IMG/VR virus record: IMGVR_UViG_3300021185_003889
Direction: 5' to 3' (one strand)
Length of the DNA stretch: 20,000 nucleotides
Origin: an uncultured virus (IMG/VR IMGVR_UViG_3300021185_003889)
Taxonomy: Duplodnaviria > Heunggongvirae > Uroviricota > Caudoviricetes
The notes under the pieces were generated by a model. It had not been told where the DNA came from and searched no databases. It saw nothing but the letters and a program-made list of their open reading frames with translations. Made by a program: the position numbers and the translations under genes. Of this stretch, positions 1,650 through 17,822 are shown piece by piece. Numbering within the stretch: position 1 is the stretch's first letter; every line of letters begins with the position of its first letter.

Positions 1650-1889
1650 CTAAAGAGGAATAAATTCTCCTGAATCTATGTCAACACTCCCCTTTCCGTA
1701 TTTATCTTCTAGTTTTTTCGCTAGATCTTGTTCAGCTACCTTAAGTTGCTCAAAGTAACCTAATGCAGAAGCTTTTCTTTTTTTAAGAGTCTCTTCTGAT
1801 ATAGATATCTGTCCAAACTCATTTACTATTTTTTTAGTACTTTCTTGAATAGCTTTTAACTGAGCTATTTCTTCTTGTTCTAATTTCAT
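1650..1889 (-). CDS. Small coiled-coil hypothetical protein (79 aa)
   Basis: ATG overlaps the TGA of the upstream radical SAM gene (ATGA). Heptad-like E/K/Q/L-rich helix followed by KYGKGSVDIDSGEF. TAG stop. Confidence 0.85.
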   Translation of the reverse strand: MKLEQEEIAQLKAIQESTKKIVNEFGQISISEETLKKRKASALGYFEQLKVAEQDLAKKLEDKYGKGSVDIDSGEFIPL

Positions 1890-3139
1890 ATAAATATAGA
1901 TTTATCTTTTAATGCATTAACTAAATCTGGAAATAATGCTTTCCAGTCTTCTCTTCTTACTTTATCTACCTCTTCTGTAGTATTAATAAATTCATTTACT
2001 AGTTTGTTATCTTCTGAATCGTAAAAGTTGCTTTTTAGTCTATTGAAAAAGCCTTCTTCTAGTTTACCTTCTATGCTGTCTATTTTTTTTCTTCTTACTT
2101 CTAAAGGTATAACTTTTACATTATGGTAGTTAGGATAATTTACATAATTATCTCTAATTACTTTAATAACACCAGTTCCGTCTTTATAATATAAGCCTTT
2201 TTCCTCTAAATACAAGTGAAGTTCCTCTAAATATAAAAAATTAAAAACATGAATAGTCTGAATTATAGCATAATCAAAGTCATATTTGTCAGTATATTTC
2301 TTTATGTTACCAATTACTGTTTCAAATCTACTTAAACTTCTGATATAATCGTTTCTTTTAAAAGTATCATCTAAACTAAAGTTTAATTTAACCTGTTTAA
2401 AGTGATGCAATCTATCTAATATAGGAACTATTCTTTCAAACTTATAATTACCGTTAGTAATATACGTTATATAAATGTCTTTAGCTAAATCTCTTTCTAT
2501 TAATAGATCTAATAGATATGAATGTTTATCTACTAAAAAAGGTTCACCGCCACTTATATGTAATTCATCTAATTTGAACCCATTCTGTAAAAGATCCAAA
2601 TATACTTTAGGATCTTCTACCCAATCGTAATCAACTCCATCAGATTTAAGTTTATCGTATCCACTAGGTAGGTTTATTTTATCTTTTAATTTATAGTAAT
2701 CGTCTACCCATGAAGTTGATGATTCAGCATTACAACTTCTACATTTTAAATTACAAAAATTACCTAGCCTTAATTCTAGGTACCTAACATCGGGCTGTAT
2801 TGTACCATCTTCTTTAGTTATAGACTGTAGATAAGATTCATCTAATATTTTTTCTTTATTTCTTTTTGAAAATCCTCCTGCTTCTTCTATTTTATAGCAA
2901 GTTAAGCAAGCCTCTGGTACCTCACCGGATAGCATATCAGTTCTTATTTTTCTAAAAGACTCTGAGTTTACTATTTTATTAACTCCATCTCTTATATGTA
3001 CGGGCCTACTATCTTTACTATCGAAGTTTTGTGATAAAGCATACTTACTTTCCCAATTAGCTTCACAGCAAACAGAAGACCATCCATGTGGCATAACACT
3101 TAGGTGTTTCCATGGTAAACTACATATAAATTTACTCAT
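1886..3139 (-). CDS. Radical SAM protein with N-terminal twitch/SPASM-like domain (#7 in transcription order)
   Basis: N-terminal ICSLPW...VCCE...CLTC; CNLKCRSC; SSTSW; ISGGEP; YITNG; SLDD; C-terminal DKVRREDWKALFP. Confidence 0.93.
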   Translation of the reverse strand: MSKFICSLPWKHLSVMPHGWSSVCCEANWESKYALSQNFDSKDSRPVHIRDGVNKIVNSESFRKIRTDMLSGEVPEACLTCYKIEEAGGFSKRNKEKILDESYLQSITKEDGTIQPDVRYLELRLGNFCNLKCRSCNAESSTSWVDDYYKLKDKINLPSGYDKLKSDGVDYDWVEDPKVYLDLLQNGFKLDELHISGGEPFLVDKHSYLLDLLIERDLAKDIYITYITNGNYKFERIVPILDRLHHFKQVKLNFSLDDTFKRNDYIRSLSRFETVIGNIKKYTDKYDFDYAIIQTIHVFNFLYLEELHLYLEEKGLYYKDGTGVIKVIRDNYVNYPNYHNVKVIPLEVRRKKIDSIEGKLEEGFFNRLKSNFYDSEDNKLVNEFINTTEEVDKVRREDWKALFPDLVNALKDKSIFI

Positions 3140-4394
3140 GGTAATGCTTGTTTTTTAAATCTTCGAACTCAGGAAAAATTTTAAAAAAGTCTACTTTCCT
3201 TATTCTATCTAATTTACCTTGCATATAACTATATGCTTCTTCGTTATACTTGTCTGCTCTTAAATTTGATCCTTGCTTAATATATTTTACTACTTTTTCA
3301 AAAGCTCTAACATCACTAAGTATATGATTTTCTTCTCCTTCTAACGTTTTTAACCACTCTATATGATTATTGTATTTATCTACTAAAGCATCTAAATGAT
3401 TCTTAGGAAGCTTCCAAAGAGTAAACTGAACAGGTGCATGTAAAATATTTGCATGAATTTTACCAACTGATAAGTAATTTTTTTCAATAAACTCTCTATG
3501 TAAATCAACAACGTTGTAAGAATTTAACCAACTTATAGTTGGAGCAATATTAAAATCTAAATGAGGTACTTCTTTTTGTAGTCTTTCAATATTAGCTTCT
3601 ACATTATTCCATTTTATGTTAGTACGTAAATATTCTCCTCGAGAATGAGATCCATCAAGACTAGCTTGAATACATATTTCTTTAAACTCTTTCCACAACG
3701 GTACTACATCCCATACTCCGTATGTTAACTTAGCCATATTAGTACTATACAAAAGAGCAATTTTGTCAGCTCTACCTTTTTCTATAATTTTATTTAATAA
3801 TTTATAATGTTCTGGTAGCATTAAAGGTTCTCCACCAGCAAAATATATCTGTCTTATATTATCTATTTGATCATATAGTTGAAGTAATAAATTTTCAGTA
3901 TTTTCAATAGATTTGAGCTTAGGGGCTCCTTCAGGAGTTAAACCTAATGCTACTGAATCATTATACCATGATGTAGACCAATTGCTTCCACAGCTTACAC
4001 ATTTTAAATTACATTTATTTGAGAAACGAATGTCTATATACCTTAATTTTAAATCTGGTATGAAAAAGTTGTTTTCATTAGTAGCTTTAACTACATCGTC
4101 ATAATCATATACCCTGTTAAAATTATACCTTAATGACTGTTCTCCTTTATCCTCCAATTCCCAACAGTGATCACACCCTTTTACTTTTACACCATTATGA
4201 AGGTCTTTACGTAACTGAACAGCTGCTGGGGAGTTCATGTGTTCTTGTAAATCGTCATCACCTGAATATGTAGATAATTTATGTTCAGGGTTAAAAATAC
4301 AACAGGGCATGAACTCTCCTTGTGTTCCTATGTAGGAAGCAATATAAGGTGCAGAACAAAAAGTACCTTCCATATTTCTTATTTCTTTTTCCAT
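3132..4394 (-). CDS. Radical SAM protein with N-terminal twitch/SPASM-like domain (#6)
   Basis: FCSAPY...PCCI...CDHC; CNLKCVSC; FAGGEP; YSTN; ASLDG; C-terminal DRIRKVDFFKIFPE. Confidence 0.93.
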   Translation of the reverse strand: MEKEIRNMEGTFCSAPYIASYIGTQGEFMPCCIFNPEHKLSTYSGDDDLQEHMNSPAAVQLRKDLHNGVKVKGCDHCWELEDKGEQSLRYNFNRVYDYDDVVKATNENNFFIPDLKLRYIDIRFSNKCNLKCVSCGSNWSTSWYNDSVALGLTPEGAPKLKSIENTENLLLQLYDQIDNIRQIYFAGGEPLMLPEHYKLLNKIIEKGRADKIALLYSTNMAKLTYGVWDVVPLWKEFKEICIQASLDGSHSRGEYLRTNIKWNNVEANIERLQKEVPHLDFNIAPTISWLNSYNVVDLHREFIEKNYLSVGKIHANILHAPVQFTLWKLPKNHLDALVDKYNNHIEWLKTLEGEENHILSDVRAFEKVVKYIKQGSNLRADKYNEEAYSYMQGKLDRIRKVDFFKIFPEFEDLKNKHYHE

Positions 4395-5419
4395 TACAGT
4401 AACTCAGCTTCTAGTTCTAAATTAGATATAACATTTCGATATCTATTTAATTTACGTACCTCATTTACAAACTCATAATGTTCAGGATGAGTATTATCTA
4501 GTACATTGACTTTTTTATATTCTTCTTCTGAGAATGTTCCCCAGTTAGCAACTCTATAAAAAATATTTTTATGATCTCTATGTTTATAGAATATCTTATT
4601 CATTAACTCCACAAATGGAATTATTTCTTTATAGTTTGCTTGTTGTGTGACAAAAGAAGTAGTAATTTTATCTATAGTTTCTATTTTGTTAATAAACTTA
4701 AGATTTTCAATCAACACATCCCATTTACCTCCCAGTCTAGTTTTATTTTCATAAGTGTCTTTAGTTGCAGCATCTATGCTTATCTCAACTTGCTTTATAA
4801 ACTTTCTAACATTTTTTAGTTTATCCCAAAGTTTGGTAGTTAAAAGTATACCATTAGTATGTAATATAATTCTATCTAACTTAGGGTACTTTTCTACTGG
4901 AAAGTTAATTAGATACTCTCTCATTGGTTTACTATAAAGAGGATCACCAGTACCGCTAGTAAAAAATTCCTCAAGTTCATCACTAAATCCTTCTTCTACC
5001 TTTCTCAACTGATTTAAAGTCAATGCTGTATTAAGGTCTGTATTAGGTATAATATTATCCCTGCAAGTAGGACATCTTAAGTTACAAGACTGGTCAATAC
5101 AAATTTTTATTCGTTTAGGTTTATTGTAATTATTAGGATTAAATTCCTTAATAGGTCTTATCGGACCTGTTGCTTCGCCTTTATTAACAAGTACATTTAA
5201 ATGTGGACAGAATTCACTACTACAGTTTTTAAATGTACCATCCAGCATAGATTCTCTTATCTCTTCTGCTTCTGTGCTAAACCAGTTTTTTAAATAATCA
5301 GGAGATTTTTTTAAATTAGTATCATTCCAATACGGACAGCACATAGTTTGTCTATCCTTATGAATCTCTGTATAGGTAAAAGGTAAGTCACAAAAATAAT
5401 TTTTTAGATCTACTTTCAT
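4394..5419 (-). CDS. Divergent radical SAM protein with N-terminal Cys cluster (#5)
   Basis: FCDLPF...MCCP...CSSEFC; CNLRCPTC; SGTGDP in place of GGEP; HTNG; ISIDAATKDTYE. Confidence 0.9.
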   Translation of the reverse strand: MKVDLKNYFCDLPFTYTEIHKDRQTMCCPYWNDTNLKKSPDYLKNWFSTEAEEIRESMLDGTFKNCSSEFCPHLNVLVNKGEATGPIRPIKEFNPNNYNKPKRIKICIDQSCNLRCPTCRDNIIPNTDLNTALTLNQLRKVEEGFSDELEEFFTSGTGDPLYSKPMREYLINFPVEKYPKLDRIILHTNGILLTTKLWDKLKNVRKFIKQVEISIDAATKDTYENKTRLGGKWDVLIENLKFINKIETIDKITTSFVTQQANYKEIIPFVELMNKIFYKHRDHKNIFYRVANWGTFSEEEYKKVNVLDNTHPEHYEFVNEVRKLNRYRNVISNLELEAELL

Positions 5420-6678
5420 ATACTATTCAATTTAAAATGATTATAGGTAAAAGGATCTAATTCTAAAAAATTTTGTTTTCTCTTCTTATCTAAAATATCT
5501 GTAAACTTAACAAAGTCTCTTATACTGCTTTTCTCTGATGTTATTTTGATTAAGGTAATTAAAGATTTAAGTTTGTTAATAATCCACTTTTTTCTAGATT
5601 CAGGTATGTTAGTATACCTAACTTTTAAGTAGTTTATTTTATCGTTTATTTTTAATATTGCTTTTTCTTTAAGTTCCTCTGGTATATTTTTTATATTTAG
5701 ATAATGAGGATTAGTAACTGGATGTAGTACAGGTATAAAATTTCTATCTAAGAAGAAATCTATAGCATCAAGCATATGAATTAAATTATATGTTTGAACT
5801 GTATAGTTAGCATATACGTTAATATTAGTCTTATTATTTCTAATATACTGATCTAACATATCTATCTTTTTATTTATAACTGACCATTTCATAGGGTACC
5901 TAACATATTCATATGTATCTTCTATACCATCAATAGAAAAATCAATATTAACGTTTTTAAACTTATTGAGTTTAGTGAGTAAGTCAAAATTTAATTTAGT
6001 TAGATTAGTATTTATTCTTAGATCTAAATTATATGAATGACCTGATTCTATAAAGAAATCTATAAGTTCATAAAAAGACTTATTAATTAAAGGTTCTCCA
6101 CCGGAAAATCTTATAACTTCTATATCTTCAACATTATCTTTAATATGGTTACAGTATTGTTCCATATCAATATTAACAGGTTCGTCTAATGTAGGAAAAA
6201 GATTTTTAAGAGAATCTTCTGATAATGTAGATGTTATCTCTAAATACTCATTATTAATAAGGTTTGAGTCTTGAGGTGAACACATTCTACATTTTAAGTT
6301 ACATAAGTTACCTACTCTATACTCAACTGATATAGGAGCATGATTAAGTATCCCGTTATTCTTTCTAGCTGATTGTACTCTTTCGATAAACTTTTTATCG
6401 TTTTGATAAGATTCTACTAAATCAGTTCGTAGGGATGCACCCCCTTCTTTTTCAGCATGATAACATACATCACATCCTTTGATATATTCACCGTTTATAC
6501 TTTTTATTCTGTCTTTTGCTAATTGTTCACTATTCCAAAAACTCTCTAGTGGCTGATCTACTGTTATTCCGTTTACTTTACCATTTTTTATCTCAGGTAC
6601 GTGCAAACAACATGCTTTATAAACTCCATAGGAGTCATTCATTACATGATTGAAAAAACTAGGGCAGAAAGAGTTCAT
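5416..6678 (-). CDS. Radical SAM protein with N-terminal twitch/SPASM-like domain (#4)
   Basis: FCPSFF...ACCL...CDVC; CNLKCRMC; FSGGEP; INTN; FSIDG...YEYVRYP. Confidence 0.93.
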   Translation of the reverse strand: MNSFCPSFFNHVMNDSYGVYKACCLHVPEIKNGKVNGITVDQPLESFWNSEQLAKDRIKSINGEYIKGCDVCYHAEKEGGASLRTDLVESYQNDKKFIERVQSARKNNGILNHAPISVEYRVGNLCNLKCRMCSPQDSNLINNEYLEITSTLSEDSLKNLFPTLDEPVNIDMEQYCNHIKDNVEDIEVIRFSGGEPLINKSFYELIDFFIESGHSYNLDLRINTNLTKLNFDLLTKLNKFKNVNIDFSIDGIEDTYEYVRYPMKWSVINKKIDMLDQYIRNNKTNINVYANYTVQTYNLIHMLDAIDFFLDRNFIPVLHPVTNPHYLNIKNIPEELKEKAILKINDKINYLKVRYTNIPESRKKWIINKLKSLITLIKITSEKSSIRDFVKFTDILDKKRKQNFLELDPFTYNHFKLNSI

Positions 6679-6689
6679 GATTAAAAAGG

Positions 6690-8009
6690 TTAAATATTAG
6701 ATTTAACCTTATTGTTTGTATCAGGAATACTGTCATACCAGTCTTTATAATATGGGTATACTGTAGTGAAAGATTCTTTTCTATACTCATCTACTAAAGA
6801 AACAATATTTTTCATTTCTCCGTTTTCTTTAGACTTATCTACTTCTCCTTTATCTAACTCGAAATACTTAGTAATAATATCGTACTTTTGTTTCATTTGT
6901 TTTTTATAAAACTCTGGTACTTTTCTCAGATGGTTATATAGGTTATCTCTAGCTTTTATTTTTAAATCAGTTGGTAAAGTATCTAAAGCATAGTATCTTG
7001 GGAAAGTTAAAACGTTATTTAAATGAACACCATGCCATTGAACTCCTAACTCAATCATTCTATCTACGAAGTCTGGTATTTGAAATATATTTAGTATACT
7101 TACAGTACAACTAAAGTCAAAATGAAATCCTTTATCGATAGCTAATCTAACGTTATCTTCTATTTTTTTCCAATCTGTTCCAGATCTAGCATATTCTGCA
7201 ACATCTCCCATTGCGTCTAATGAAGCAAATATTCTTACATTAAGAGGATTACGTTTAGTAAAATGGCTCCACAGTTCTAAAACATCCCATTTTTTAAACT
7301 TTAACATACTGAAGTTAGTGTTATATCTAATGCGGGTATCAGTGTTACCTATTTCGATAAGCTTTTCTAAAATCATATAATGCTCTTCCATCATCAATGG
7401 TTCTCCACCTGCAAAATAAATCTCTTCTACGTCTTCAATAAACATATCTATATACTCATAGATATTTTTTTTACTCCAATCGTTTACATGTATAAGTGCT
7501 CTATCATTTTCACTCTGACCAAATATATCTACTTCATCTTTATACCATTTAGAACTAAGAGATGAACCGCACATTCTACATTTAAAGTTACATAAGTTAG
7601 AAAAACGAAAATCCCAATACCTTAAAGTAAAATCATTACTATGTCCATCTTCTTCAGTAGTATCAACAAAAGTATCTAAATGATCTTTCATTAATCTATT
7701 TGAAGCTACCCTCATACTCTCATCTCCGTTTTCTTCTTGAAGATAGCATTTAGCACAATGTTCATGTTTTTTACCCTCAAGTTTATCTTTTCTTAACTCC
7801 TTCATTCTATCTGCATTCCACAACTCTTCTAAAGTTGCATCTTTTACATGTCCGATAGGATGTCTATAGTCAGTCAAACAACAAGGATATACTCTACCAT
7901 CAGGCCAGTGATGTAAATGAGACCAAGGTAATGCACAGAATGTTTTACTTATTCTATCTCCTGGGTTTTCCTTAAACTTATACTTAATATGATTTCTATG
8001 TTCCGCCAT
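6690..8009 (-). CDS. Radical SAM protein with N-terminal twitch/SPASM-like domain (#3)
   Basis: FCALPW...DGRVYPCCL...IGHVKDATLEELWN...CAKC (clear SPASM-like signature); CNFKCRMC; SSKW; FAGGEP; YNTN; ASLDA. Confidence 0.95.
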   Translation of the reverse strand: MAEHRNHIKYKFKENPGDRISKTFCALPWSHLHHWPDGRVYPCCLTDYRHPIGHVKDATLEELWNADRMKELRKDKLEGKKHEHCAKCYLQEENGDESMRVASNRLMKDHLDTFVDTTEEDGHSNDFTLRYWDFRFSNLCNFKCRMCGSSLSSKWYKDEVDIFGQSENDRALIHVNDWSKKNIYEYIDMFIEDVEEIYFAGGEPLMMEEHYMILEKLIEIGNTDTRIRYNTNFSMLKFKKWDVLELWSHFTKRNPLNVRIFASLDAMGDVAEYARSGTDWKKIEDNVRLAIDKGFHFDFSCTVSILNIFQIPDFVDRMIELGVQWHGVHLNNVLTFPRYYALDTLPTDLKIKARDNLYNHLRKVPEFYKKQMKQKYDIITKYFELDKGEVDKSKENGEMKNIVSLVDEYRKESFTTVYPYYKDWYDSIPDTNNKVKSNI

Positions 8010-9346
8010 TATATTGTATTATACCAATTTAACATTTCAGCTGTAAAGTGCTTTTCTATAGGCATTTCTCTACGTACTGCGTATTGTTTAGTGAAGTTCT
8101 TAAAGTCAGTTAATTTCTTATCTAACTCATCATTATCTTCTTGTGATTTCGTAACATTTTTTAAATACTTAGTTAGTCTTGTTATTTGATTTATTTCCCA
8201 AGGTCTTAAAACGTCCTTGATTTTATCTAACGTATTTTCTATTCTTTCAGCTAATATATCTTTATATTGCTGCTCTATAATATTTACACTTTGAAAAGAA
8301 GGAAATCTTAAAATATTTAAGGACATATAAAACTGATCAGGTCTAGTTGATTTTCTCCATTGAACTATCTTTTCTAAAAATTCAGCAACACCCCAAACAC
8401 TTAATGCTGATATAGTCATCATTATATTAACCGTCGTAACAGAGTCTTCTTTATTTAATGCAAACATATTTTTTTCCCATACATCCCATTCAAAACCATC
8501 TCTTACAAAATCCTGCAAAGGACCGTAACATTCAGCAGATGTATATATTTCAAACTTTTTAAATTTTTTACTTGCAGCTACTAATTTTTGTAATCTGCTA
8601 TCTTCCATAATAAGATTACTATTAACTGCAAAATCAAATTTTTCATTCTCACAAACATCTAAAAGATGCCAGAAAGAAGGACTCCTTGAAGGTTCACCGC
8701 CTGAAACTCTAAGTTCATATAACCCGTCTTTTATTTCAGGAAACCAATCAAAGAACCGTTTAACATAAATATTACCTTCATTCTTATTTCCAAAAGGCAT
8801 TGCCAGTGAACCATCTTGTCTATAAGTTTTTCCTCCAAATGTTTCCATATCTTTGTATGGACCGTTTGTTGTAATATCTTTAGACCAAGTAGAACTAAAT
8901 TCAGAGTTACAATATGAACATGCTAAGTTACATAAGTTATCAAAGCATATTTCTACAGTTTTAGGATTAACATTTTTATCCCACGGTATATCTTTCAAGG
9001 CAGCTATTTCCTCATCAGTATAACGAGCAGTTTGATATACTCTATCACTATACACTCCTTCTCTATTACCACCTGATGCGTCTTCTGCAGTCCAACAGTA
9101 TGAACACTCTGGCGGTCTTTCTCCCTCCAGCATCATCTTACGTTGTTTCTTTTTAAACTCTGTATTATGTAATGCTGATGCGTCTTTGGCTAGTTCTTCA
9201 TCTGGTATTTTATGAGCGAGAGGATGGTGACAAGAAGCTGTTCTACCGTTACCTAACCAAATAGATACGTTGTACCATTTTGCCGCACAAAATGATGTTG
9301 ATGTATTATTCATCGCCTTTAATGCATTCTCATAGGATGTTTTCAT
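8009..9346 (-). CDS. Radical SAM protein, N-terminal 'SCHH' twitch variant (#2)
   Basis: FCAAKW...SCHHP...CSYCW; CNLACSYC; SSTW; VSGGEP; VNSN; TSAE. Confidence 0.93.
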   Translation of the reverse strand: MKTSYENALKAMNNTSTSFCAAKWYNVSIWLGNGRTASCHHPLAHKIPDEELAKDASALHNTEFKKKQRKMMLEGERPPECSYCWTAEDASGGNREGVYSDRVYQTARYTDEEIAALKDIPWDKNVNPKTVEICFDNLCNLACSYCNSEFSSTWSKDITTNGPYKDMETFGGKTYRQDGSLAMPFGNKNEGNIYVKRFFDWFPEIKDGLYELRVSGGEPSRSPSFWHLLDVCENEKFDFAVNSNLIMEDSRLQKLVAASKKFKKFEIYTSAECYGPLQDFVRDGFEWDVWEKNMFALNKEDSVTTVNIMMTISALSVWGVAEFLEKIVQWRKSTRPDQFYMSLNILRFPSFQSVNIIEQQYKDILAERIENTLDKIKDVLRPWEINQITRLTKYLKNVTKSQEDNDELDKKLTDFKNFTKQYAVRREMPIEKHFTAEMLNWYNTI

Positions 9347-9927
9347 GCTATTTGGTATATAAAATTTAAGTTGCCAGTTTTATCTACAGACTTACCGTGT
9401 ATTATCTCACTAAAATCATGATGACATGCTAAACCTTCTGTATCGTATATTTTAAAATTTAATAACTTTATATCTATTTGTTCAGATTCTTCTTGTGTAA
9501 CATGTGTATTTGCACCTAAAAAAATTACTGGGTTATCAACTATAGCTAAAGGTGTTTCTGATAAACTGTATTCAAATTCAATTTTCTTATTTATTGATAC
9601 TGTTAACTTTTCTTTAGGTAGGTGCTCATAAGTTACATTATACTTTACATTAGGTTCAAATATATAATTAGTTTCTACTCTATCATTTTGATTATCGTAT
9701 CCTAATCCTATAAACAATCTATTTTCAAATATAGATAAACTTGTACATTTAGGAACAAAACAGAATACATCTTTTACAGTAGAAAAATTATTTTCAGTAT
9801 TTTCAAAATCTACTTCTATCTTCCAATAATGATCCCCCTGAACTCTAGGAAGTATAGGGTTAGGTAGAAATGAAGGGCATATACTATCTGGCCATAACAT
9901 CCATGGGTATCTTCTACTTATATTCAT
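9343..9927 (-). CDS. LamG/concanavalin A-like beta-sandwich protein (~194 aa)
   Basis: The ORF track start (10008) overlaps the upstream gene by 95 nt; the ATG at 9927 (MNISRRYPW) is more plausible. Beta-rich pattern YNVTYEH..LTVSINKK..VIFLGAN..LLNFKIYD..HHDFSEIIHGKSVDKTGN resembles LamG C-termini. Confidence 0.6.
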   Translation of the reverse strand: MNISRRYPWMLWPDSICPSFLPNPILPRVQGDHYWKIEVDFENTENNFSTVKDVFCFVPKCTSLSIFENRLFIGLGYDNQNDRVETNYIFEPNVKYNVTYEHLPKEKLTVSINKKIEFEYSLSETPLAIVDNPVIFLGANTHVTQEESEQIDIKLLNFKIYDTEGLACHHDFSEIIHGKSVDKTGNLNFIYQIA

Positions 9928-11299
9928 TATACATGTATTTAAGTTCTGGGAATGTTTCTTCAAAGTTAGTACCTCTACGTTCATCATATTGAGATATAAA
10001 TCTTGCAAAGTCTTTCCTTTGTTTTTCTACATCAAATGGAGTATAGTCATTTTTACCTATTGCATAATCATAAGTTCTTTTTATCTTCTGTATTTCGACA
10101 TCATTAAAACCGTACTTAATTTTAGTCATACCGTTTCTTCCATAATATAATGCTTTAGTAGCAGCATCTAAAATATACTTTTTATGATTATCTTCTAATA
10201 TTTTTATATTAAGATGAGGTGGCCAACGAGTATAAGATGTATCTAACTGTAATGCAGTATTCCAGTACCTATCCTTATTCCAATGTTTCTTTTTATAAAT
10301 TAGTACCTTATCTATTAATTCACTGTATGTAAAAACAGATAATGCATTAAAAGCAGCCATAATATTTACTGTAACTTTTGGTAACTCAGTAAGTATATTA
10401 TCTATGTTTATCCAAAATTCATCATAATTTAAACCATGTCTTACATATTCTGCTTGTTTACCAGTAGCTTCAACAGAAGTAAAAATTATTAGTTCTTTTA
10501 TCTTATTATTGTTTACTAAATCTTTACATATGTTAATCATTCTATCTATTAACTTTTTAGGTACTCCTAAATTAGTATTTATAGCTAATGATAAATTAGG
10601 ATTTTCTTCCCAGTGGTCTTGAATATACTCTAATACTTTGAAAGTATCTGGAGAAAGTAAAGGTTCACCGCCAGTTATTCTAAATGTATGTAAATCTTTA
10701 AATAAATCTGGCCACCATTCCCAAAATGCATCTATATAAGGATTATGTTCAGATTTTTTATAAGGCATTTCACCTCTTGCTTTTATATCTTTTATACTAT
10801 TAAACCTAGTAGCCGTATCATACCCTCCATGTTTTTCTATCTCTTCTACCCATTTTGAAGAGTATTGAGGTCCACAATAAGCACAAGCAAAATTACAAGT
10901 ATTACTGAATGAAACTTCTACATATCTAGGATTGTAGTCCGCAGACCATCTAGTATTTTTAATTTTATCCATTTGGTCAAGTGACCATGGTTCAGCTGAT
11001 TTAAAAGTTCTATCAGAAAAGTGAGGAGAGTTATCTTCTACGTTCCAGCAATAATTACATTCTGAAGGTCTCTTACCTTCTAGCATTTCTTTCCTTTTTT
11101 TCTTTTTATATCTGGTGTTATGTAATGCAGAAGGATTGTTTCTTAACTCTCTTAATGGTATTTTATGTTGTACAGGGTGGTGACAAGAATGTGTTAATCC
11201 TGTACCTAAGTGCATAGTTACTTGAGTCCATTTTGCTAAACAGAAACCGCATCCTTGTTCATCTAATTTTTTCTTTACTATTCCGTAGTCGAAATTCAT
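9914..11299 (-). CDS. Radical SAM protein, N-terminal 'SCHH' twitch variant (#1)
   Basis: FCLAKW...SCHHP...CNYCW; CNFACAYC; SSKW; ITGGEP; INTN; TSVE; C-terminal DERRGTNFEETFPEL. Confidence 0.94.
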   Translation of the reverse strand: MNFDYGIVKKKLDEQGCGFCLAKWTQVTMHLGTGLTHSCHHPVQHKIPLRELRNNPSALHNTRYKKKKRKEMLEGKRPSECNYCWNVEDNSPHFSDRTFKSAEPWSLDQMDKIKNTRWSADYNPRYVEVSFSNTCNFACAYCGPQYSSKWVEEIEKHGGYDTATRFNSIKDIKARGEMPYKKSEHNPYIDAFWEWWPDLFKDLHTFRITGGEPLLSPDTFKVLEYIQDHWEENPNLSLAINTNLGVPKKLIDRMINICKDLVNNNKIKELIIFTSVEATGKQAEYVRHGLNYDEFWINIDNILTELPKVTVNIMAAFNALSVFTYSELIDKVLIYKKKHWNKDRYWNTALQLDTSYTRWPPHLNIKILEDNHKKYILDAATKALYYGRNGMTKIKYGFNDVEIQKIKRTYDYAIGKNDYTPFDVEKQRKDFARFISQYDERRGTNFEETFPELKYMYNEYK

Positions 11300-12717
11300 A
11301 ATTTTATATCTAACATTTTAGCCCAAGGGGTAAGTATTTTTTCTCCAACTAACTCATATTTAAGTTGCTTGATACCGTCTTCTTTGTAGTTAATTTTTTT
11401 ATCTTGCATTTTAAGAACATATCTACGTTCATTAGCTGCAGTAGTATCACCTTTTACAAATTTACCATCTACTATTCCTTCATCAGGATGTGGTAAACAT
11501 CTCATTCTACCTTCTACTCTATGAGGTAATATAGAATTAGGAACTCTAATGTCTTCTATTTTTTCTTCAACATTAAATAAATTATATTCAGTTTTAGTAT
11601 TATTAAAATCAATATCTACTAAATGTCCTTCAGTAGGGATATTATTATGTAAGTTGCTTACTTCTTGAGGTGTTAATGCTCTATTCCAGGCATGTACCTT
11701 AGCGATATCTCCTTTAAAGTACTTTATTGTACTACCTTCTTGTTCTGATGGTGAAGTTCCTAAGTAGTAATCATTAGAACCGTAATTTTTAAGATTACCT
11801 TTGAATCTCCATGGTGATAAACTTCCTATACCTGCTCTAGCATCTACTTCATTTCCATTTAAATAAAAATGTGAATGGTGAGTAGATAAATCTATAACTG
11901 CTGTAATCCAAGACCATTGTTTATCATATCTTTTTAACCACATATAGTTATGTCCGTTAAATGAATTCCAGTAAGTCAGTGAAAGAGCTCTTGAATTATT
12001 AAACGATATACCGTAATCGTACCCCGGTATTCTAAAAATAGGATACTCTACATATTTACGAGTATTATCTCCTATAAGAAATATAGGATTTTTTTCTGGT
12101 TGTTGATAAGCTCTAACTAATACAGATACTGTATGTGACCTAGAAGTTAATCCTCTAAACTCTCTCTGATATGGTATTTTACCGTATGAATTATTACCGT
12201 TAAAAGAAATATATTTGTGTTGAGGTAAGTTAACATCTAAGTAAGTATCATTTGTTAAACCTTCTAGATGACATCTATAGAATAAATCATCATCTTCCAT
12301 ACCCCAATCCCAATAATCATTAGAATATCCGTTTGTTGCCTCTACTTGCTCTTTAGTAAATAAAACTGCTCCTCCAAAATATTCATGGTACTTTAACTTA
12401 TAATCCATCTGAGATATCTGAGTAGCTATATGTCTTGGTCCTTTATCAGGGTATGAGTAATCACAACCGCCATCCTCTTCAGGAATCATATCTATATCAT
12501 GCCATACTACATAATCACATCCGTCTTCGAAAGCGTGTTTAGCACCTATATTTTTAGTAGCTCCTCTATTAAAGAGTTTATCATCAACTTGATGTACTAT
12601 ATAAATTTGAAAGTCAATATTATTATCTTTTAAGTATTTACCTATTTTAGGTATAAACTCATTCATATGTAACTCTCTATTCCTATATGGAACGCAAACT
12701 CCTAATTTATGACTCAT
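11296..12717 (-). CDS. GT7 (beta-1,4-galactosyltransferase-like) glycosyltransferase with inserted LamG domain
   Basis: VPYRNR, FNRG..KNIG, HDIDM (DxD), YFGGA, NGYSNDYWDWGMEDDD. Then LamG motifs SFNGNNSY..FYLNG..FKGDIAKVHAWNRALT, then a GT7-type tail GRMRCLPH..DGIKQLKY. Confidence 0.9.
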   Translation of the reverse strand: MSHKLGVCVPYRNRELHMNEFIPKIGKYLKDNNIDFQIYIVHQVDDKLFNRGATKNIGAKHAFEDGCDYVVWHDIDMIPEEDGGCDYSYPDKGPRHIATQISQMDYKLKYHEYFGGAVLFTKEQVEATNGYSNDYWDWGMEDDDLFYRCHLEGLTNDTYLDVNLPQHKYISFNGNNSYGKIPYQREFRGLTSRSHTVSVLVRAYQQPEKNPIFLIGDNTRKYVEYPIFRIPGYDYGISFNNSRALSLTYWNSFNGHNYMWLKRYDKQWSWITAVIDLSTHHSHFYLNGNEVDARAGIGSLSPWRFKGNLKNYGSNDYYLGTSPSEQEGSTIKYFKGDIAKVHAWNRALTPQEVSNLHNNIPTEGHLVDIDFNNTKTEYNLFNVEEKIEDIRVPNSILPHRVEGRMRCLPHPDEGIVDGKFVKGDTTAANERRYVLKMQDKKINYKEDGIKQLKYELVGEKILTPWAKMLDIKL

Positions 12718-14138
12718 AACATTACTTCAATATGATGGTAGTTTTCACTGTTGAATTCATTTCTTACCTTATACTTACAATTAGTAAGACCATCTTTCTG
12801 GTAGTTAGATTTTAAACTATAATAGTTATTTAAATACCTTAGTTGATTTTCTCTACTAGTCCAACTAACCCAATACCCATCTTTATACCCATTTTCTCTA
12901 TGAGGTAGTATTTTAAACTTACCTTCTTTTCTGTGCGGTATAGGTTTTGTTATATCGCTTGTATATTGAGTAAATGTCTGCTCACAATTGAAAACTCTAG
13001 CATTATTACCACCTCTCAGATCAATTAAATCAGTACCATTAACAAATTTAGAATCATAATACGATACTAATTTGTCATTAGACTTAAGGTTAAATAAACT
13101 ATCTTTTAAATTAGAACCTAACTGCAAACATTCAGAATCAGTAAGTACGTCATTATATGTAGCAAATGTATCTATTTTACCTTTGAACCAGTTATTTTTC
13201 TCTTTTCTATCTGGATCACCTACTCCTAAATATAAATAAGGTTCTTTTTGAATATTTAGTAGTTTATCAAAAGTATTTTCCCCAACAAGTTTACCATTTA
13301 GGTAAAATTTTACTACCGGTGGTTGGTAGTCTACAGAGTTTTTATTTGCACCTTTATTATCTACTGTAATAATAGCGTTAAAATGACCAGCTTGGAGTCC
13401 TTTAGTTGGAATAGAAATAGAGCTCAAATCGTTTTTCCAAAATTGAAAGGTTAAATCAAAAAACGAATTGATAGTTAATGTAGTATCAAAGCCAGGTATA
13501 CTAAATACTGAGTTATTATCAGTAACTAAATCTACATCTGATATAACGTTGTTATAGCTAAAAGATGTAAATATAGAGAAGTTTCGAAGTATAGAAAGTT
13601 TATTAGGAACAGCAACAAAACTATCCTCACCATTAAATTCTAATGCTACACATTCACGACCTCTCTGTATAACTTTTGTTCCATTTAAATCTATATGATT
13701 TTCTAAACATCTAAGTAATAAATCATCATCTTCGAATCCCCATCCGTAATATTCGTTACTGTATCCGTTTATTTGTTTAAATAAATTAACAGGAAATGCT
13801 GTTACTCCACCGAAATACTCATCGAATAAGGTTCTTGAAACTCCTTCAGGTAAATCTACATCAGTAATTAAGTGAGTAGGTTTATTTACATAGCCGTAAT
13901 CAGCTTCAACTGGTAGCATATCTACATCATGAAATATGACATAGTCACAGCCAAGTTCTTCAGCTTTTAAAAACCCTATGTTAAGAAGCTTACCTCTATT
14001 AAAGTCTTTTTTGTCTGATTGTTCAACTACAATCAACTCAAAATCTATATCAAGATAGTCATTTATTTCTTTTCGGAATGTTGCAAGCTGTTCTGGTCTG
14101 TTTCTGTAGGGTATTATTATGCCTAACTTATGACTCAT
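12714..14138 (-). CDS. GT7 glycosyltransferase with inserted LamG domain (paralogue)
   Basis: IPYRNR, FNRGKLLNIG, HDVDM, YFGGV, NGYSNEYYGWGFEDDD; LamG ALEFNGEDS..FYLNG..FKGKIDTFATYNDVLT; tail GKFKILPH..DGLTNCKY. Confidence 0.9.
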   Translation of the reverse strand: MSHKLGIIIPYRNRPEQLATFRKEINDYLDIDFELIVVEQSDKKDFNRGKLLNIGFLKAEELGCDYVIFHDVDMLPVEADYGYVNKPTHLITDVDLPEGVSRTLFDEYFGGVTAFPVNLFKQINGYSNEYYGWGFEDDDLLLRCLENHIDLNGTKVIQRGRECVALEFNGEDSFVAVPNKLSILRNFSIFTSFSYNNVISDVDLVTDNNSVFSIPGFDTTLTINSFFDLTFQFWKNDLSSISIPTKGLQAGHFNAIITVDNKGANKNSVDYQPPVVKFYLNGKLVGENTFDKLLNIQKEPYLYLGVGDPDRKEKNNWFKGKIDTFATYNDVLTDSECLQLGSNLKDSLFNLKSNDKLVSYYDSKFVNGTDLIDLRGGNNARVFNCEQTFTQYTSDITKPIPHRKEGKFKILPHRENGYKDGYWVSWTSRENQLRYLNNYYSLKSNYQKDGLTNCKYKVRNEFNSENYHHIEVML

Positions 14139-14343
14139 CTTCCTCTTGCTCTTCTTCTTTTTCTTCTCCAGGTGTTCTGTTTAAAAACTCTGCTAAGTAG
14201 TACTGCATTCTTTCTCCCCATTCTTCTTTATCGATTTCTTCAAACCAAAGAGTTAGGTTATCTAGTATTTTAGCAATTTTCTCAATAGCTTTTACTTTTC
14301 TCTCTTCTAAAAGCTGTTTTTCTAAATCTAATTTTGAGCTCAT
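14128..14343 (-). CDS. Small helical hypothetical protein with acidic tail (~71 aa)
   Basis: The ATG at 14343 overlaps the TGA of the upstream gene (ATGA) and is preferred over the track start at 14376. MSSKLDLEK...GEEKEEEQEEDES. Confidence 0.75.
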   Translation of the reverse strand: MSSKLDLEKQLLEERKVKAIEKIAKILDNLTLWFEEIDKEEWGERMQYYLAEFLNRTPGEEKEEEQEEDES

Positions 14344-15179
14344 ATTGTAACTATTTTGTTCATTAATGTATTCCAATGTGGATAGTCCTTATATTCAATA
14401 TACGAAAATTCTTTTAATTCTTCAACTAAATACTTAAGATTATCAGTATCTATTTTCCAATTTGAATTTTTAATAGCCTCGTACAAAATTCTATATTCAT
14501 CTGAGTAAGAATAGTCCTTTTTGTTATCAGCTACTTTTTTTATTCTTTCCACGCAAGTACTATCCCATTTAAAGTGGTGTACCTGAGTAAATACTTCATT
14601 AACAGGCATTCTTCTTGGATGTCCTTTGCCCCAGCTAGTAGTACCGTCATTAAATTTAGCATAATGTTGTCCAGAGCTAATATCTTGAAAACCTTTCATA
14701 AGTGTAACTTTATTAGGACATGCTTTAGACATAGGATATCTAAAGAATCCAGCTAGCGGAAAAGCTTTATGAATATTCGTCTCTCTCGTTACTTCAGGAA
14801 ATGTGCCATCTATACCTATTCTATCTATAAACCCTCCTGTAACAAAGTCATAACCGTATCTCTCACAGTTTTTTATGATATACTCGACAGGCTCTGGGTA
14901 TACTTGTAGTTCATCATCATCAGATACTATCCACCAGTCGTTAGGCTTGGTTTGCTTAATGGTATTATATATCTCTGTTACTCTTTCCCAGTTATATTTA
15001 GGTTCGGTAAACACCATAAATGGTTCTATACCTAACTCTTCTATTTCTTCTAGTATACCATCATCATTACTTTGACGATATACTGCTACATATGCTTTAT
15101 CAATGACATCTTCATAGTGTTTTAACATATGAGGAAGTATATGTGTATTCTCTCCTACTACTGTTACTAAATTAGGCAT
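14340..15179 (-). CDS. GT-A fold glycosyltransferase (GT2-like, Glyco_tranf_2_4 type)
   Basis: ENTHILPHMLKHY, SNDDG, DWWIVSDDDEL (DxDE), NK, GQH and VHHFKW, in the order typical of this family. Confidence 0.75.
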   Translation of the reverse strand: MPNLVTVVGENTHILPHMLKHYEDVIDKAYVAVYRQSNDDGILEEIEELGIEPFMVFTEPKYNWERVTEIYNTIKQTKPNDWWIVSDDDELQVYPEPVEYIIKNCERYGYDFVTGGFIDRIGIDGTFPEVTRETNIHKAFPLAGFFRYPMSKACPNKVTLMKGFQDISSGQHYAKFNDGTTSWGKGHPRRMPVNEVFTQVHHFKWDSTCVERIKKVADNKKDYSYSDEYRILYEAIKNSNWKIDTDNLKYLVEELKEFSYIEYKDYPHWNTLMNKIVTI

Positions 15180-15951
15180 GTCTTAATAATGTTAATCCAG
15201 TTGAACTGGGTTTTGTGTTTAATGTTCCTTCGTTGAAGAAGTCAAATCTTTGCCATTCTTCTCCTATTTCTTCAATAAACTTTGCAGGACCGTTTCCAAA
15301 GTCGTCATACTTATTCTGTTCTTTTATATCCTGTGATACTATATAATTCTCTGTAAAATTTATATCTGTATCATGAATAGATATGATTCCGTTAGGAGAA
15401 AGTATCTTAGAATATAATTCAAAGTCTTTTTTCACACCTTGGTATGAATGATCAGCATCTATATGAAGATAATCGATTTTTATATCTTCCTTTATGAAAA
15501 AATTATAATATGCATTTTCAGTAGTATCGTTTATAAAGCGAGGAAAAAAGTTACTTCTGAAAAATGATGATTCATCTAGATAATTTACTTGCCCTCCTAT
15601 ACCATTAGCTGCATCTACTAAATATGTAGTACCTATATCCCCCCAGTTAAATTCTTTTTTACCTTCAAATATATTTGTTTCGTACAAATCGATTCTAGCT
15701 TGTGTCATTATACGTGGTACAAAGCCTCCTCCTGAACCCAAACAGACGCAGGTTTTAGCTCTCATATAACTAATAATAGAGTATATTAGTAATCCATCTC
15801 CTAAGTGATAATCAGTAGCTCCATGAGTCCATCTGAATTCGACTGGTATCTGTCTTTCATGTACTTTACCGTCTTGTTCAAGTACTTTAACTGTGTCATT
15901 AGTTAGATTCTTAAATATGTAATCTTTATTAAGTATTGTATTCTTGATCAT
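15172..15951 (-). CDS. Class I SAM-dependent methyltransferase (Methyltransf_24-like)
   Basis: CVCLGSGGG motif I; IDYLHIDADHSYQGVKKDF...LSPNGIISIHD. Confidence 0.88.
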   Translation of the reverse strand: MIKNTILNKDYIFKNLTNDTVKVLEQDGKVHERQIPVEFRWTHGATDYHLGDGLLIYSIISYMRAKTCVCLGSGGGFVPRIMTQARIDLYETNIFEGKKEFNWGDIGTTYLVDAANGIGGQVNYLDESSFFRSNFFPRFINDTTENAYYNFFIKEDIKIDYLHIDADHSYQGVKKDFELYSKILSPNGIISIHDTDINFTENYIVSQDIKEQNKYDDFGNGPAKFIEEIGEEWQRFDFFNEGTLNTKPSSTGLTLLRHA

Positions 15952-16783
15952 ATTTAATATCTTTATGAACTGCTAGTATATTTCTTAATATAGCTATTTC
16001 TCCTTGTAAATCAAAGCCTTCTCTAGATTTTTTTATCTTAGCTTTTTCCATCCAGTAATGTCTGAATTTAGTATTACATTCCTCAAGAGGGTATATTCCT
16101 ATAGGATATTCTCTATACTCTTTATCAATACAGCTCCATTCAGCTTTCATAAGTGAATCATATTGAACTTTATGAATATCTAAAAGATTTTTAAGTAATA
16201 ACTGTTCACTGACTATAAGGTAACGTGAATTAGGAGCTTTAAGTTTAGTAAATTCAACCATTAAATCTAAGCTTTTTTGAGCATAAAAATTAGCAAAAGA
16301 ACTGTGAGGAAAATATAAAAAACTACAGTTTATAGCTCTTAATTTTGGTCTATATAAATGCTTTCTTACTGCCTTCATAAAAGGATCATATGCAGTAGGA
16401 TAGTACCTTGTTCCGTCCTCTTCTACTGGTATAACAATTTTATCGTTTAAATGCTGTTCTAGATTTATATACACTAAAAAGTCATGATCCATTATTATAC
16501 TTGGACCTTCTATAAATCTTAAAACTTCTAATTTACTTGAAGCCCAGAATACATTTTTATCGATAAATTTATTTTCAGGTAATAATTTTATTTCGTCCCA
16601 TATCTTACTAGCATTCATATTCTCTATTAACTCAATAGTTAATTGATCAGCATACAATATACAAGTAAAAGTAGGATGATTACGTTTCCACAAAGTAGCG
16701 GAACAAAGTAAAAGCAGAACATCTAATTCGTTATAAAAAGATGACTGCTTTCTTATATTTTCATAGACCCAATATGTATTCAA
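15929..16783 (-). CDS. Putative GT-A / nucleotide-diphospho-sugar transferase-like protein (DUF6734-like)
   Basis: TTG start. LYAD, FWASSKL, PSIIMDHDFLVY (DxD), INCSFL, EQLLL and a late His (FRHYW), a motif order seen in GT-A enzymes. Confidence 0.6.
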   Translation of the reverse strand: MNTYWVYENIRKQSSFYNELDVLLLLCSATLWKRNHPTFTCILYADQLTIELIENMNASKIWDEIKLLPENKFIDKNVFWASSKLEVLRFIEGPSIIMDHDFLVYINLEQHLNDKIVIPVEEDGTRYYPTAYDPFMKAVRKHLYRPKLRAINCSFLYFPHSSFANFYAQKSLDLMVEFTKLKAPNSRYLIVSEQLLLKNLLDIHKVQYDSLMKAEWSCIDKEYREYPIGIYPLEECNTKFRHYWMEKAKIKKSREGFDLQGEIAILRNILAVHKDIKYDQEYNT

Positions 16784-16799
16784 AACCTTTAATTAACTA

Positions 16800-17252: not shown

Positions 17253-17254
17253 GA

Positions 17255-17806
17255 TTATACTTTTTCTATTTTATCTATAGGAAAATTCTTTCCTAATTCT
17301 TGTATTAAATGATTATAACAGAACTCTCCCAAGTTATTTAAAGGTATATTATAGTCTATTACTTTTTTAGTAACTGTTTCTGTACCTACTTTTACCTTTT
17401 CTTTAGTTGTTACAGTTCTATATAATGTTATTTCATTTCCTTCTTCATCAAAGCTAACGTAAGGTACTTCTCTTGAAACTTCTTGTTCTTCTAAAACATC
17501 TACCTCAATAGCTTCTTCTACATAAGGGTGTGTAGTGTATAAATTAGGAATATGTATATCTATTCCATCACTACCAGGTTTATCATAAAATATTACGTTT
17601 TGAGTAACTAATCCAATTGAATTATTTAACTGGTCGTCATAATATTTTCTTAAAAACCTATCACCGTAACTTTTGTCGAGCCAAGCAGTAGTTGAATACC
17701 TTATTTCATTTACTGTATTATTAATACGCCAGGTATCTATCCTAATATATAACTTGTCTGTTGGCCCTTGATTTGTTTCCAAATCTATATTTAATATTAA
17801 TCCCAT
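17255..17806 (-). CDS. Hypothetical protein (183 aa), possibly tail-fibre accessory
   Basis: Clean ORF in operon context directly after the tail fibre; no recognisable motif. Confidence 0.75.
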   Translation of the reverse strand: MGLILNIDLETNQGPTDKLYIRIDTWRINNTVNEIRYSTTAWLDKSYGDRFLRKYYDDQLNNSIGLVTQNVIFYDKPGSDGIDIHIPNLYTTHPYVEEAIEVDVLEEQEVSREVPYVSFDEEGNEITLYRTVTTKEKVKVGTETVTKKVIDYNIPLNNLGEFCYNHLIQELGKNFPIDKIEKV

Positions 17807-17822
17807 ATGATTAATATACGAA

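Follow-up and report, generated by a model that had tools for sequence, protein, structure and literature searches.

A described system with gene content like that analyzed here is the host recognition cluster of the pelagimyophages, T4-like phages of SAR11, in whose fiber island radical S-adenosylmethionine (SAM) cassettes and glycosyltransferases (GTs) are mentioned (Zaragoza-Solas et al. 2020, PMC7029224). That cluster combines fibers, GTs and radical SAM cassettes and lies between VrlC and gp14; GT8 is the commonest GT family reported for it, its radical SAM family is left unanalyzed in those parts of the paper that deal with the island, and modification of the host O-chain is proposed there. 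In mycobacteriophages, phage-encoded GTs glycosylate virion proteins, and the glycans are located at the C-terminal ends of the subunits of capsid and tail tube (PMC12619734, citing Freeman et al. 2023), and the summary given in that source mentions no radical SAM enzymes. Here we describe a cassette of 14 genes, seven of them for radical SAM enzymes, in a 20,000-nucleotide stretch of viral DNA (IMG/VR record IMGVR_UViG_3300021185_003889; Caudoviricetes); “the window” denotes this whole stretch. The DNA belongs to a marine myovirus that is uncultured and has Flavobacterium phage vB_FspM_immuto (“immuto”) as a relative. Among phage gene sets for glycan modification, the cassette represents a variant rich in radical SAM genes; it is a real, well-delimited and widespread island, and we tentatively propose that it builds a glycan and then edits it by radical chemistry.

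Although like the pelagimyophage cluster in content, the cassette lies elsewhere, between the fiber and sheath genes of an immuto-like backbone, and by position is not a member of that cluster. With mycobacteriophage virion glycosylation it shares the linkage of GT genes to structural genes; it differs in its seven radical SAM enzymes, and its acceptors are candidates only. A search of 8.4 million papers found no characterized system of the same composition, which agrees with the initial annotation of this DNA, although the pelagimyophage paper touches on such content in passing. What is new here is the accessory status of the island relative to immuto, a map of its core and accessory paralogs, two mutually exclusive GT architectures, a GT8-like fold for DUF6734 and a possible insertion of a LamG domain into a GT7 enzyme.

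All long open reading frames (ORFs) of the window are on the minus strand, and the cassette is read from right to left in window coordinates (Table 1). Its 14 co-oriented genes extend from 1886 to 16783, and all junctions between them overlap or abut, with the sole exception of an 11 nt gap (6678 to 6690). In the order of transcription, a fiber-like gene (19424-19999) and an S74 tail fiber gene are followed by o183, o150, the 14-gene block, s79 and the tail sheath gene; the widest gap in the window, 113 nt, separates s79 from the sheath. G+C content ranges from 26% to 38% window-wide, with no shift at the cassette edges. The initial annotation had described 14 same-strand, mostly overlapping genes with gaps of no more than about 11 nt, set between tail-fiber genes and the sheath. 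The ORF listing bears this out and places the block inside a gap-free structural gene string, with o183 and o150 and then the Peptidase_S74 fibers upstream, and s79 and then the sheath downstream. The gene content given there (four GT-type, one methyltransferase and seven radical SAM genes) also stands, except for one LamG-like label.

At the sheath protein the window shares 58.5% identity with immuto, its nearest cultured relative by this measure; no near-identical DNA was found among cultured phages. In immuto the interval between fiber and sheath genes holds only five small genes, one of them for a lysozyme, and a tblastn search with rS5 against all phage records found no radical SAM relative in immuto. 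Because immuto has no such block at the same junction, the cassette is an accessory island at the fiber-sheath junction. A homolog of s79 is present in immuto, and since immuto, without the island, also carries this gene, s79 belongs to the backbone. A homolog of o150 lies directly upstream of the cassette in five of five other immuto-like records, and o183 is upstream of it in three of three records searched and also occurs in L002, L052 and L077. Neither o150 nor o183 gave a match in the immuto genome, an empty answer that is weak by itself, the same queries having matched related viral records. Both genes may belong to the island, and o150 is a candidate acceptor or fiber accessory. In the ESM Atlas both proteins fall into viral hypothetical clusters only. 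Leads to Flg_new for o150 and o183 were rejected, their scores of 0.77-0.78 being below the trust level.

A chimeric assembly, raised in the initial annotation as an objection, is excluded because three independent viral contigs share the cassette. These contigs (L001, L002 and L003; 98, 86 and 76% identity on one enzyme) each have one match for every cassette gene that falls inside the contig, in the same gene order. DNA of this phage is apparently present in at least 14 marine sequencing runs, each of which contains half or more of the words sampled from the block.

Seven cassette proteins (rS1 to rS7) match Pfam Radical_SAM, as had been annotated, and all seven keep the CX3CX2C cysteines; the invariant columns of the seven-paralog alignment are C6, C25 and C78, followed by C129, C133 and C136. 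The earlier twitch assignment holds for six of the seven. These pass the NCBIfam model NF033640 (“twitch domain-containing radical SAM protein”, N_Twi_rSAM; curated cut-off 170 bits) with 284.5-385.2 bits and align from model positions 1-4 to 392-398 of 398. The seventh, rS3, scores 41.8 bits, under the cut-off, and is placed outside the family. Its best NCBIfam matches are a W-cofactor maturase and MoaA, both far under their own cut-offs; it keeps the N-terminal cysteine columns of the paralog alignment and forms its own cluster of 29 loci in 8 of the lineage groups defined below. Pfam SPASM is matched at residues 5-89 in four of the seven proteins, N-terminal to Radical_SAM, so that the usual arrangement of the two domains is inverted. 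Identity to the first aligned paralog is 19-26%. Conserved cysteines ahead of the radical SAM core number four in all six family members and five in the rS5 type; among 13 rS5 orthologs, Cys 25, 43, 44, 85, 88, 140, 144 and 147 are invariant, and five of these precede the core. Because four or five conserved cysteines precede the core, the sequences suggest that the auxiliary cluster is fully cysteine-ligated.

Searched against the PDB, a profile of rS5 orthologs has one sequence match only, to BtrN of butirosin biosynthesis (PDB 4M7S/4M7T), at E 3.2e-4 and limited to the twitch region (residues 166-260). Both BtrN and the cassette enzymes are small radical SAM proteins with one extra cluster domain, and their twitch domains align, but the twitch is C-terminal in BtrN and N-terminal in the cassette enzymes, so that the domain order is permuted. 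The cassette enzymes also add a C-terminal helical region (about 80 residues in the predicted rS5 model; predicted local distance difference test, pLDDT, 81.9). BtrN is absent from the top structural matches of the whole rS5 model, which are led by BlsE (Z 11.0, root mean square deviation 3.7 Å over 207 residues) and include SkfB (Z 10.3), CteB (10.1), MoaA (9.6), anSME (9.5) and SuiB (9.3). Homologs of rS5 number more than 7293 at E<=0.001 among 8000 candidates scored. The NF033640 model carries no functional name, and the family is known here as a sequence model. Literature searches found no paper naming NF033640, DUF6734 or DUF6071, none describing a characterized member of the NF033640 family, and none pairing “N-terminal twitch” with radical SAM or with “twitch domain”.

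The four GT-type genes previously annotated are likewise upheld: two encode GT7 enzymes, one a borderline GT2-like protein, and one (o284) is assigned by fold. GT7a and GT7b (473 and 474 amino acids; mutual identity 32%) score 67.4/70.6 and 63.1/59.0 bits against the Pfam 7N/7C models (cut-offs 27/23). They match B4GalT1 at E 1.5e-29 and E 1.4e-23, with HDIDM and WGMEDDD motifs in GT7a and HDVDM and WGFEDDD motifs in GT7b. The DxD and WGxEDDD motifs are thus shared with B4GalT1 and β-1,4-galactosyltransferase 7 (CAZy GT7); the cassette proteins differ from these in having a LamG domain after residue 155 and in the absence of a membrane anchor. The alignment of the catalytic domain covers residues 2-155 in both proteins (profile E 4.2e-51), and the LamG domain of about 180 residues follows. 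A profile of 24 GT7 sequences gave a further weak stretch collinear with B4GalT1 chain positions 235-282, the last 48 (own E-value 28), and the last 94 residues of GT7, used as a single-sequence query, gave no match. Because the weak C-terminal stretch is collinear with the end of B4GalT1, the LamG domain may be inserted within the GT7 catalytic domain rather than appended to it (window 11296-14138); the insertion would presumably sit at the position of the long loop of B4GalT1.

The GT2-like protein reaches 26.9 bits (E 6.9e-6) with Pfam Glyco_tranf_2_4, under the gathering cut-off of 27.5, and all 10 of its orthologs examined match this model at E<=0.001 (best 6e-7). D87, D89 and E90 are invariant, and a profile of the family searched against the PDB returned nothing significant. 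It is likely, judged by sequence, a distant relative of Glyco_tranf_2_4 that falls short of family membership. For o284 there is no Pfam match of its own, and Glyco_transf_8 is silent at E<=0.01; its relatives are filed under DUF6734 (PF20508). Its predicted model (pLDDT 94.1) was matched by Foldseek to glycogenin, LgtC, UGGT and Skp1 galactosyltransferase with E-values of 1.4e-7 to 1e-5, probability 1.00 and template modeling (TM) scores of 0.36-0.49, and the D99xD101 motif is invariant in 30 sequences. By this model, o284 and DUF6734 have a glycogenin/LgtC-like (GT8-type) GT-A fold. The likeness to glycogenin, LgtC and UGGT lies in the GT-A fold and the DxD motif, and the differences in the low TM scores and the missing Pfam GT8 match. 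The count of four GT-type genes stands because o284 has both a GT8-like fold and an invariant DxD.

The single methyltransferase gene was correctly annotated (Methyltransf_24, E 1.5e-10); its cluster is present in 10 lineage groups. The LamG-like label given to the ORF at 9343-10008 (o221) is not confirmed. None of seven members of the o221 family matches Laminin_G_3, and the protein has only a weak DUF4352 match. Its ortholog in contig L003 has an ATG start and 194 residues, and the true start of o221 is probably the ATG near 9927. The small protein s82 is acidic and helical, contains no cysteine and has a nominal length of 82 amino acids, or about 70 from an ATG start. Its orthologs share a strongly conserved core, in which Trp, Lys and Tyr positions look invariant, and end in a variable acidic tail; s82 has no family match in Pfam, PHROG or NCBIfam. 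No cassette protein contains a 19-residue Kyte-Doolittle window of 1.6 or more, and no flippase, polymerase, ligase or export family was matched by window proteins in the same three databases.

Table 1. Genes of the window, with positions in window coordinates. Genes from rS1 to o284 form the cassette; “groups” are viral lineage groups.
Gene	Product	Position	Strand	Evidence
sheath	tail sheath, N-terminal 512 aa (flank)	1..1536	-	Pfam Phage_sheath_1, phrog_23
s79	small backbone protein upstream of sheath, 79 aa (flank, outside island)	1650..1889	-	homolog in phage immuto
rS1	N-terminal-twitch radical SAM, 417 aa	1886..3139	-	NF033640 301.9 bits; Pfam Radical_SAM and N-terminal SPASM
rS2	N-terminal-twitch radical SAM, 420 aa, accessory type	3132..4394	-	NF033640 350.7 bits
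rS3	shorter divergent radical SAM, 341 aa	4394..5419	-	Pfam Radical_SAM E 8.3e-12
rS4	N-terminal-twitch radical SAM, 420 aa, accessory type	5416..6678	-	NF033640 307.3 bits
rS5	N-terminal-twitch radical SAM, 439 aa, core type	6690..8009	-	NF033640 385.2 bits
rS6	N-terminal-twitch radical SAM, 445 aa, core type	8009..9346	-	NF033640 284.5 bits
o221	conserved protein without assigned function	9343..10008	-	cluster of 23 loci in 7 groups
rS7	N-terminal-twitch radical SAM, 461 aa, core type	9914..11299	-	NF033640 337.9 bits
GT7a	β-4-galactosyltransferase-like with LamG	11296..12717	-	Pfam Glyco_transf_7N, Glyco_transf_7C and Laminin_G_3 above cut-offs
GT7b	second GT7 with LamG, glycosyltransferase	12714..14138	-	Pfam matches; B4GalT1 E 1.4e-23
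s82	small acidic helical protein	14128..14376	-	cluster of 21 loci in 7 groups
GT2-like	GT2-like protein, 279 aa	14340..15179	-	Glyco_tranf_2_4, 26.9 bits (cut-off 27.5)
methyltransferase	SAM-dependent methyltransferase (Methyltransf_24)	15172..15951	-	Pfam E 1.5e-10, 42.4 bits (cut-off 26.3)
o284	DUF6734-type protein, predicted GT8-like GT-A fold	15929..16783	-	homologs carry PF20508; predicted model
o150	Ser/Thr-rich protein, 150 aa	16800..17252	-	composition 31% S+T
o183	protein of unassigned function that accompanies the island	17255..17806	-	co-occurrence in related records
S74 fiber	tail fiber, 513 aa, C-terminal Peptidase_S74 chaperone domain (flank)	17823..19364	-	Pfam E 1.9e-14; 20 PHROG families matched, mostly tail-fiber/baseplate
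fiber-like	fiber-like protein (flank)	19424-19999	-	ORF listing

Related loci were gathered with a pattern seeded on rS5 orthologs, so all locus sets are biased toward rS5-type genes. In viral contigs the pattern matched 474 stretches; relatives were present at 417 of them, and 80 of these were retained. The search also yielded 41 cellular loci. The 80 viral loci and the window were sorted into 28 lineage groups. Each of these loci holds between one and eight members of the radical SAM family, mostly four to eight; among close relatives there are three members in L052 and L053, four in L077 and six or seven in the others. Whether such blocks vary in content had been left to a synteny survey in the initial annotation, and the number of radical SAM genes does vary among related phages, from 3 to 8. 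In a FastTree phylogeny of 128 members (one locus per group), each window paralog forms its own clade. The rS5 clade includes all 27 other lineage groups (support 95), as expected from the seeding. The clades of rS6 (23 of 27; support 100; single copy), rS7 (21 of 27; support 81) and rS1 (21 of 27; support 100; often duplicated) are nearly as broad, and those of rS4 (7 of 27; weak support, 22) and rS2 (2 of 27; support 99) are narrow. Because the clades of some paralogs span many groups and those of others few, the enzymes of the island divide into three or four distinct, old and conserved core types (rS5, rS6, rS7 and rS1) and the accessory types rS2, rS3 and rS4.

The initial annotation had asked whether the linkage of radical SAM and GT genes recurs, and it is found in 23 of the 28 viral lineage groups, whose fetched loci contain a GT-like gene family. 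Two sets of GT genes exclude each other: type A occurs in 13 groups, type B in 10, and both together in none. Type A, which includes the window, consists of GT7-LamG genes, often accompanied by GT2-like, Methyltransf_24, s82 and DUF6734 genes. Type B consists of tandem pairs of a glycogenin-like family (PDB profile E 9.2e-8) and two unassigned families; a PDB profile search with one family of type-B loci (cluster 3) returned nothing significant. Additional genes in related loci encode UDP-glucose/GDP-mannose dehydrogenase, NAD epimerase/dehydratase, cytidylyltransferase, carbamoyltransferase, APS kinase and 2-oxoglutarate (2OG) oxygenases. Type-A loci L060, L071 and their kin carry the GT7, GT2-like and radical SAM set in contigs of jumbo-phage size, up to 323 kb, together with carbamoyltransferase, APS kinase and 2OG oxygenase genes, a combination suggesting that the product also exists in carbamoylated or sulfated forms.

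Cultured phages, vibriophage KVP40 among them, also carry members of the family. In Vibrio phage K566 (L124, 11965-23244), four radical SAM genes are interleaved with two Pfam GT8 genes; the region also has a weak GT4-like gene, and this is a case of a cultured phage with lipid-A-type genes beside the module. In Ralstonia phage RsoM2USA (L123, 11186-16762), a single family member lies beside three DUF6071 genes and a carbamoyltransferase gene; all of these are annotated as hypothetical and are placed between a DNA ligase-like gene and a helicase gene. Among 16 cellular loci inspected, GT genes lie no farther than about 7 kb away in seven (L014, L016, L034, L125, L127, L129 and L130), a frequency that is only suggestive because it was compared without a background rate. 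One of the GT-linked loci has an array of three radical SAM genes followed by four GT genes. None of 14 well-known control genomes has an NF033640 match above the cut-off, while a Bacteroidales genome (G001, L034) has 12 and a 1.8-Mb Oligoflexia genome (G002, L005) has nine, in part as tandem arrays of three or four. NF033640-type proteins as a whole have thousands of relatives in aquatic metagenomes.

The explanation that we favor, tentatively and with less than full conviction, is that the cassette builds a glycan in the cytoplasm and tailors it by radical reactions, probably on neighboring virion proteins. The island would be read within the same gap-free gene string as the fiber and sheath genes. 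Drawing on the host's nucleotide sugars, the four soluble GT-A-type transferases and the methyltransferase would build a short glycan and methylate it while still inside the infected cell's cytoplasm. Each of the seven radical SAM enzymes would then abstract hydrogen from a specific C-H of a sugar or sugar-bearing substrate, with oxidation, epimerization, deoxygenation or C-C/C-X bond formation as the outcome. The likeliest acceptors would be structural proteins of the phage that come from adjacent genes and are synthesized concurrently, namely the fibers or the Ser/Thr-rich o150. From these genes we infer the carbohydrate substrate, the order of the steps, the acceptor and the timing. In BtrN, which oxidizes an aminocyclitol, and in anSME, a fully ligated auxiliary cluster probably accepts the electron that an oxidation releases. 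Dehydrogenation followed by further chemistry is, by analogy, a reasonable guess among the outcomes just listed. The 19-26% identity of the paralogs and their separate clades in 21-27 other groups would fit a pathway of several steps. Precedents for radical SAM enzymes of the sugar type, judged by PDB entry titles, are BlsE, DesII, AprD4 and BtrN. A cytoplasmic target on the phage side seems favored by the position among structural genes, the absence of a membrane step and the co-travelling o150 and o183.

The proposal of the initial annotation that the cassette modifies virion proteins with a glycan is therefore retained in part: it draws support from the gene content, the twitch domains, the GT linkage and the structural gene string, and several observations weigh against it. 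The radical SAM core is conserved across lineages while the GT sets are swapped. A product whose core comes from the radical SAM enzymes and is variably decorated by the GTs would fit this pattern at least as well as the reverse. As far as the predicted rS5 model goes, its structural matches are generic radical SAM cores, none of them discriminating; the peptide- or cofactor-modifying enzymes SkfB, CteB, MoaA and anSME lie within about 1.5 Z of BlsE. No gene for nucleotide-sugar synthesis is present in the window. The RsoM2USA member sits among DNA ligase-like, clamp-loader-like and helicase genes, and the K566 block adjoins genes of a lipid-A type (see below). Nine of the 16 cellular loci have no GT nearby (L005, L009, L020, L022, L030, L038, L041, L126 and L128), and several cellular genomes have a single, stand-alone copy of the family among unrelated genes. 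The association with fiber genes could merely reflect a recombination-prone variable island, and fiber proteins are commonly rich in Ser and Thr.

In an unlikely alternative, the cassette would alter the envelope of its host during infection, be it the lipopolysaccharide, the capsule or a glycoprotein of the surface, and so block superinfection by rival phages or free progeny from receptors; the soluble enzymes would supply the host export machinery with modified sugars or oligosaccharides. The pelagimyophage paper reads fiber-island GTs in this way (PMC7029224). The radical SAM/GT8 block of K566 adjoins a PagP-annotated gene and another that resembles LpxC (Pfam E 1.3e-40), GT8-like folds include the lipooligosaccharide enzyme LgtC, and cellular homologs occur near Wzx-like, PMT_2 and GT2 genes. 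Yet the window encodes no membrane protein, flippase, polymerase or ligase of its own, o150 and o183 travel with the block, and the block is embedded in structural genes, which as a rule are expressed late, and exclusion functions mostly act early. Modification of phage DNA with glycosylated, radically tailored bases that evade restriction is less probable, and we give it little weight. Phage GTs that place diverse glycans on DNA have been described (bioRxiv 10.1101/2023.12.21.572611, PMC13326640), but the term “radical SAM” is absent from the portions of both papers considered here. The replication-gene setting of the RsoM2USA member, its three DUF6071 genes and the carbamoyltransferase would suit such a role, as would a partial PHROG match of the cassette methyltransferase to a family labeled DNA methyltransferase (E 1e-6). 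That label, however, rests on a stretch of 42 residues; Methyltransf_24 is also matched by a neighbor of sugar or natural-product type in Synechococcus, and no base hydroxymethylase, dioxygenase, kinase or DNA-metabolism gene lies within the 20 kb of the genome covered by the window.

A conserved radical SAM core with variable transferases is also what natural-product clusters look like, and the core could make a diffusible small molecule (aminoglycoside-like or a nucleoside-sugar) that the GTs, the methyltransferase and, elsewhere, carbamoyl-, amino- and sulfotransferases decorate. By their entry titles, BlsE, the top structural match, is an enzyme of blasticidin S biosynthesis, and the substrates of AprD4, DesII and BtrN are aminoglycoside or deoxysugar intermediates; a paper on cyanophages groups an aminotransferase with a radical SAM maturase and an inosamine amidinotransferase as “antibiotic synthesis genes” (PMC12801897, 2025), and in one cellular locus (L009) two family members have dioxygenases, a halogenase and an ABC transporter as neighbors. 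We nevertheless regard this as improbable: the window contains no scaffold-forming enzyme (a cyclase or nucleoside diphosphate-sugar enzymes), exporter or resistance gene, and the position in a virion module beside o150 and the fibers would be left unexplained. Similarly doubtful is a role of the radical SAM enzymes as protein or peptide maturases that introduce crosslinks or epimerized residues into a fiber, o150 or s82, which would also be glycosylated. Peptide maturation is the best-known role of SPASM/twitch enzymes, the leading structural matches of rS5 include SkfB, CteB and SuiB, and s82 is a conserved small cassette protein with a conserved Trp and Lys. In archaea, such an enzyme is reported to make thioether crosslinks in protein (PMC13692751, 2026). 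Against this, Pfam detects no PqqD/RRE-type recognition domain in the seven enzymes at E<=0.01, and among the 20 window proteins there is no Pfam or NCBIfam match to a precursor peptide of the RiPP class (peptides made by ribosomes and modified after translation) or to an RRE/PqqD-type domain. All NCBIfam models of RiPP maturases score far below their cut-offs for window proteins, and by these sequence comparisons the cassette does not classify as a RiPP-type peptide maturase system. Because the widest gap in the cassette is 11 nt, there is no space for an unannotated precursor peptide. In addition, s82 has no cysteine and occurs in only 7 of 28 groups, compared to 21-27 of 27 others for the radical SAM core, and related loci also contain enzymes that act on sugar nucleotides.

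Returning to a glycan carried by virion proteins, a more elaborate version can be formulated, which we consider rather unlikely. The four core types (rS5, rS6, rS7 and rS1), which many aquatic phage lineages have in common, would run a fixed series of radical C-H reactions on a sugar already attached to a host-recognition protein such as a fiber or the Ser/Thr-rich o150, while the swapped GTs and the accessory paralogs diversify the product, giving a hypervariable glycan code on the adsorption apparatus. Radical SAM enzymes are oxygen-sensitive and costly, yet this phage, whose hosts are bacteria of the surface ocean, gives about 9 kb to seven of them. If glycan editing is what they do, it would be both new carbohydrate chemistry and a new route by which phages vary or shield their particles; with a protein-bound glycan, radical chemistry after glycosylation would add an extra layer of variation in host range or defense evasion. 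A DNA, envelope or small-molecule target would be equally new for the family. The paralog map and DUF6734 as a GT8-like transferase provide a concrete starting set for biochemistry.

Promoter scans and RNA data were also considered. A scan for sigma-70 promoters gave 83 sites versus 104.9 expected and is uninformative. The same applies to the Bacteroidetes-type promoter pattern, with three matches versus 1.12 expected, since 18 of 200 shuffles reach three. Terminator-like sites number 10 versus 5.4 expected, none of them at a notable gene boundary. Two true RNA runs contain only 0.05-0.06 of the block's sampled words.

The cellular locus L009 (a Saprospiraceae contig, 3300-19000) differs in its surroundings from the GT-linked loci. 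Its two N-terminal-twitch radical SAM genes are accompanied by seven PhyH-type dioxygenase genes and genes for a WelO5-type halogenase, a UbiA prenyltransferase, a methyltransferase and an ABC ATPase, without GTs, and the whole looks like a natural-product or lipid-tailoring cluster.

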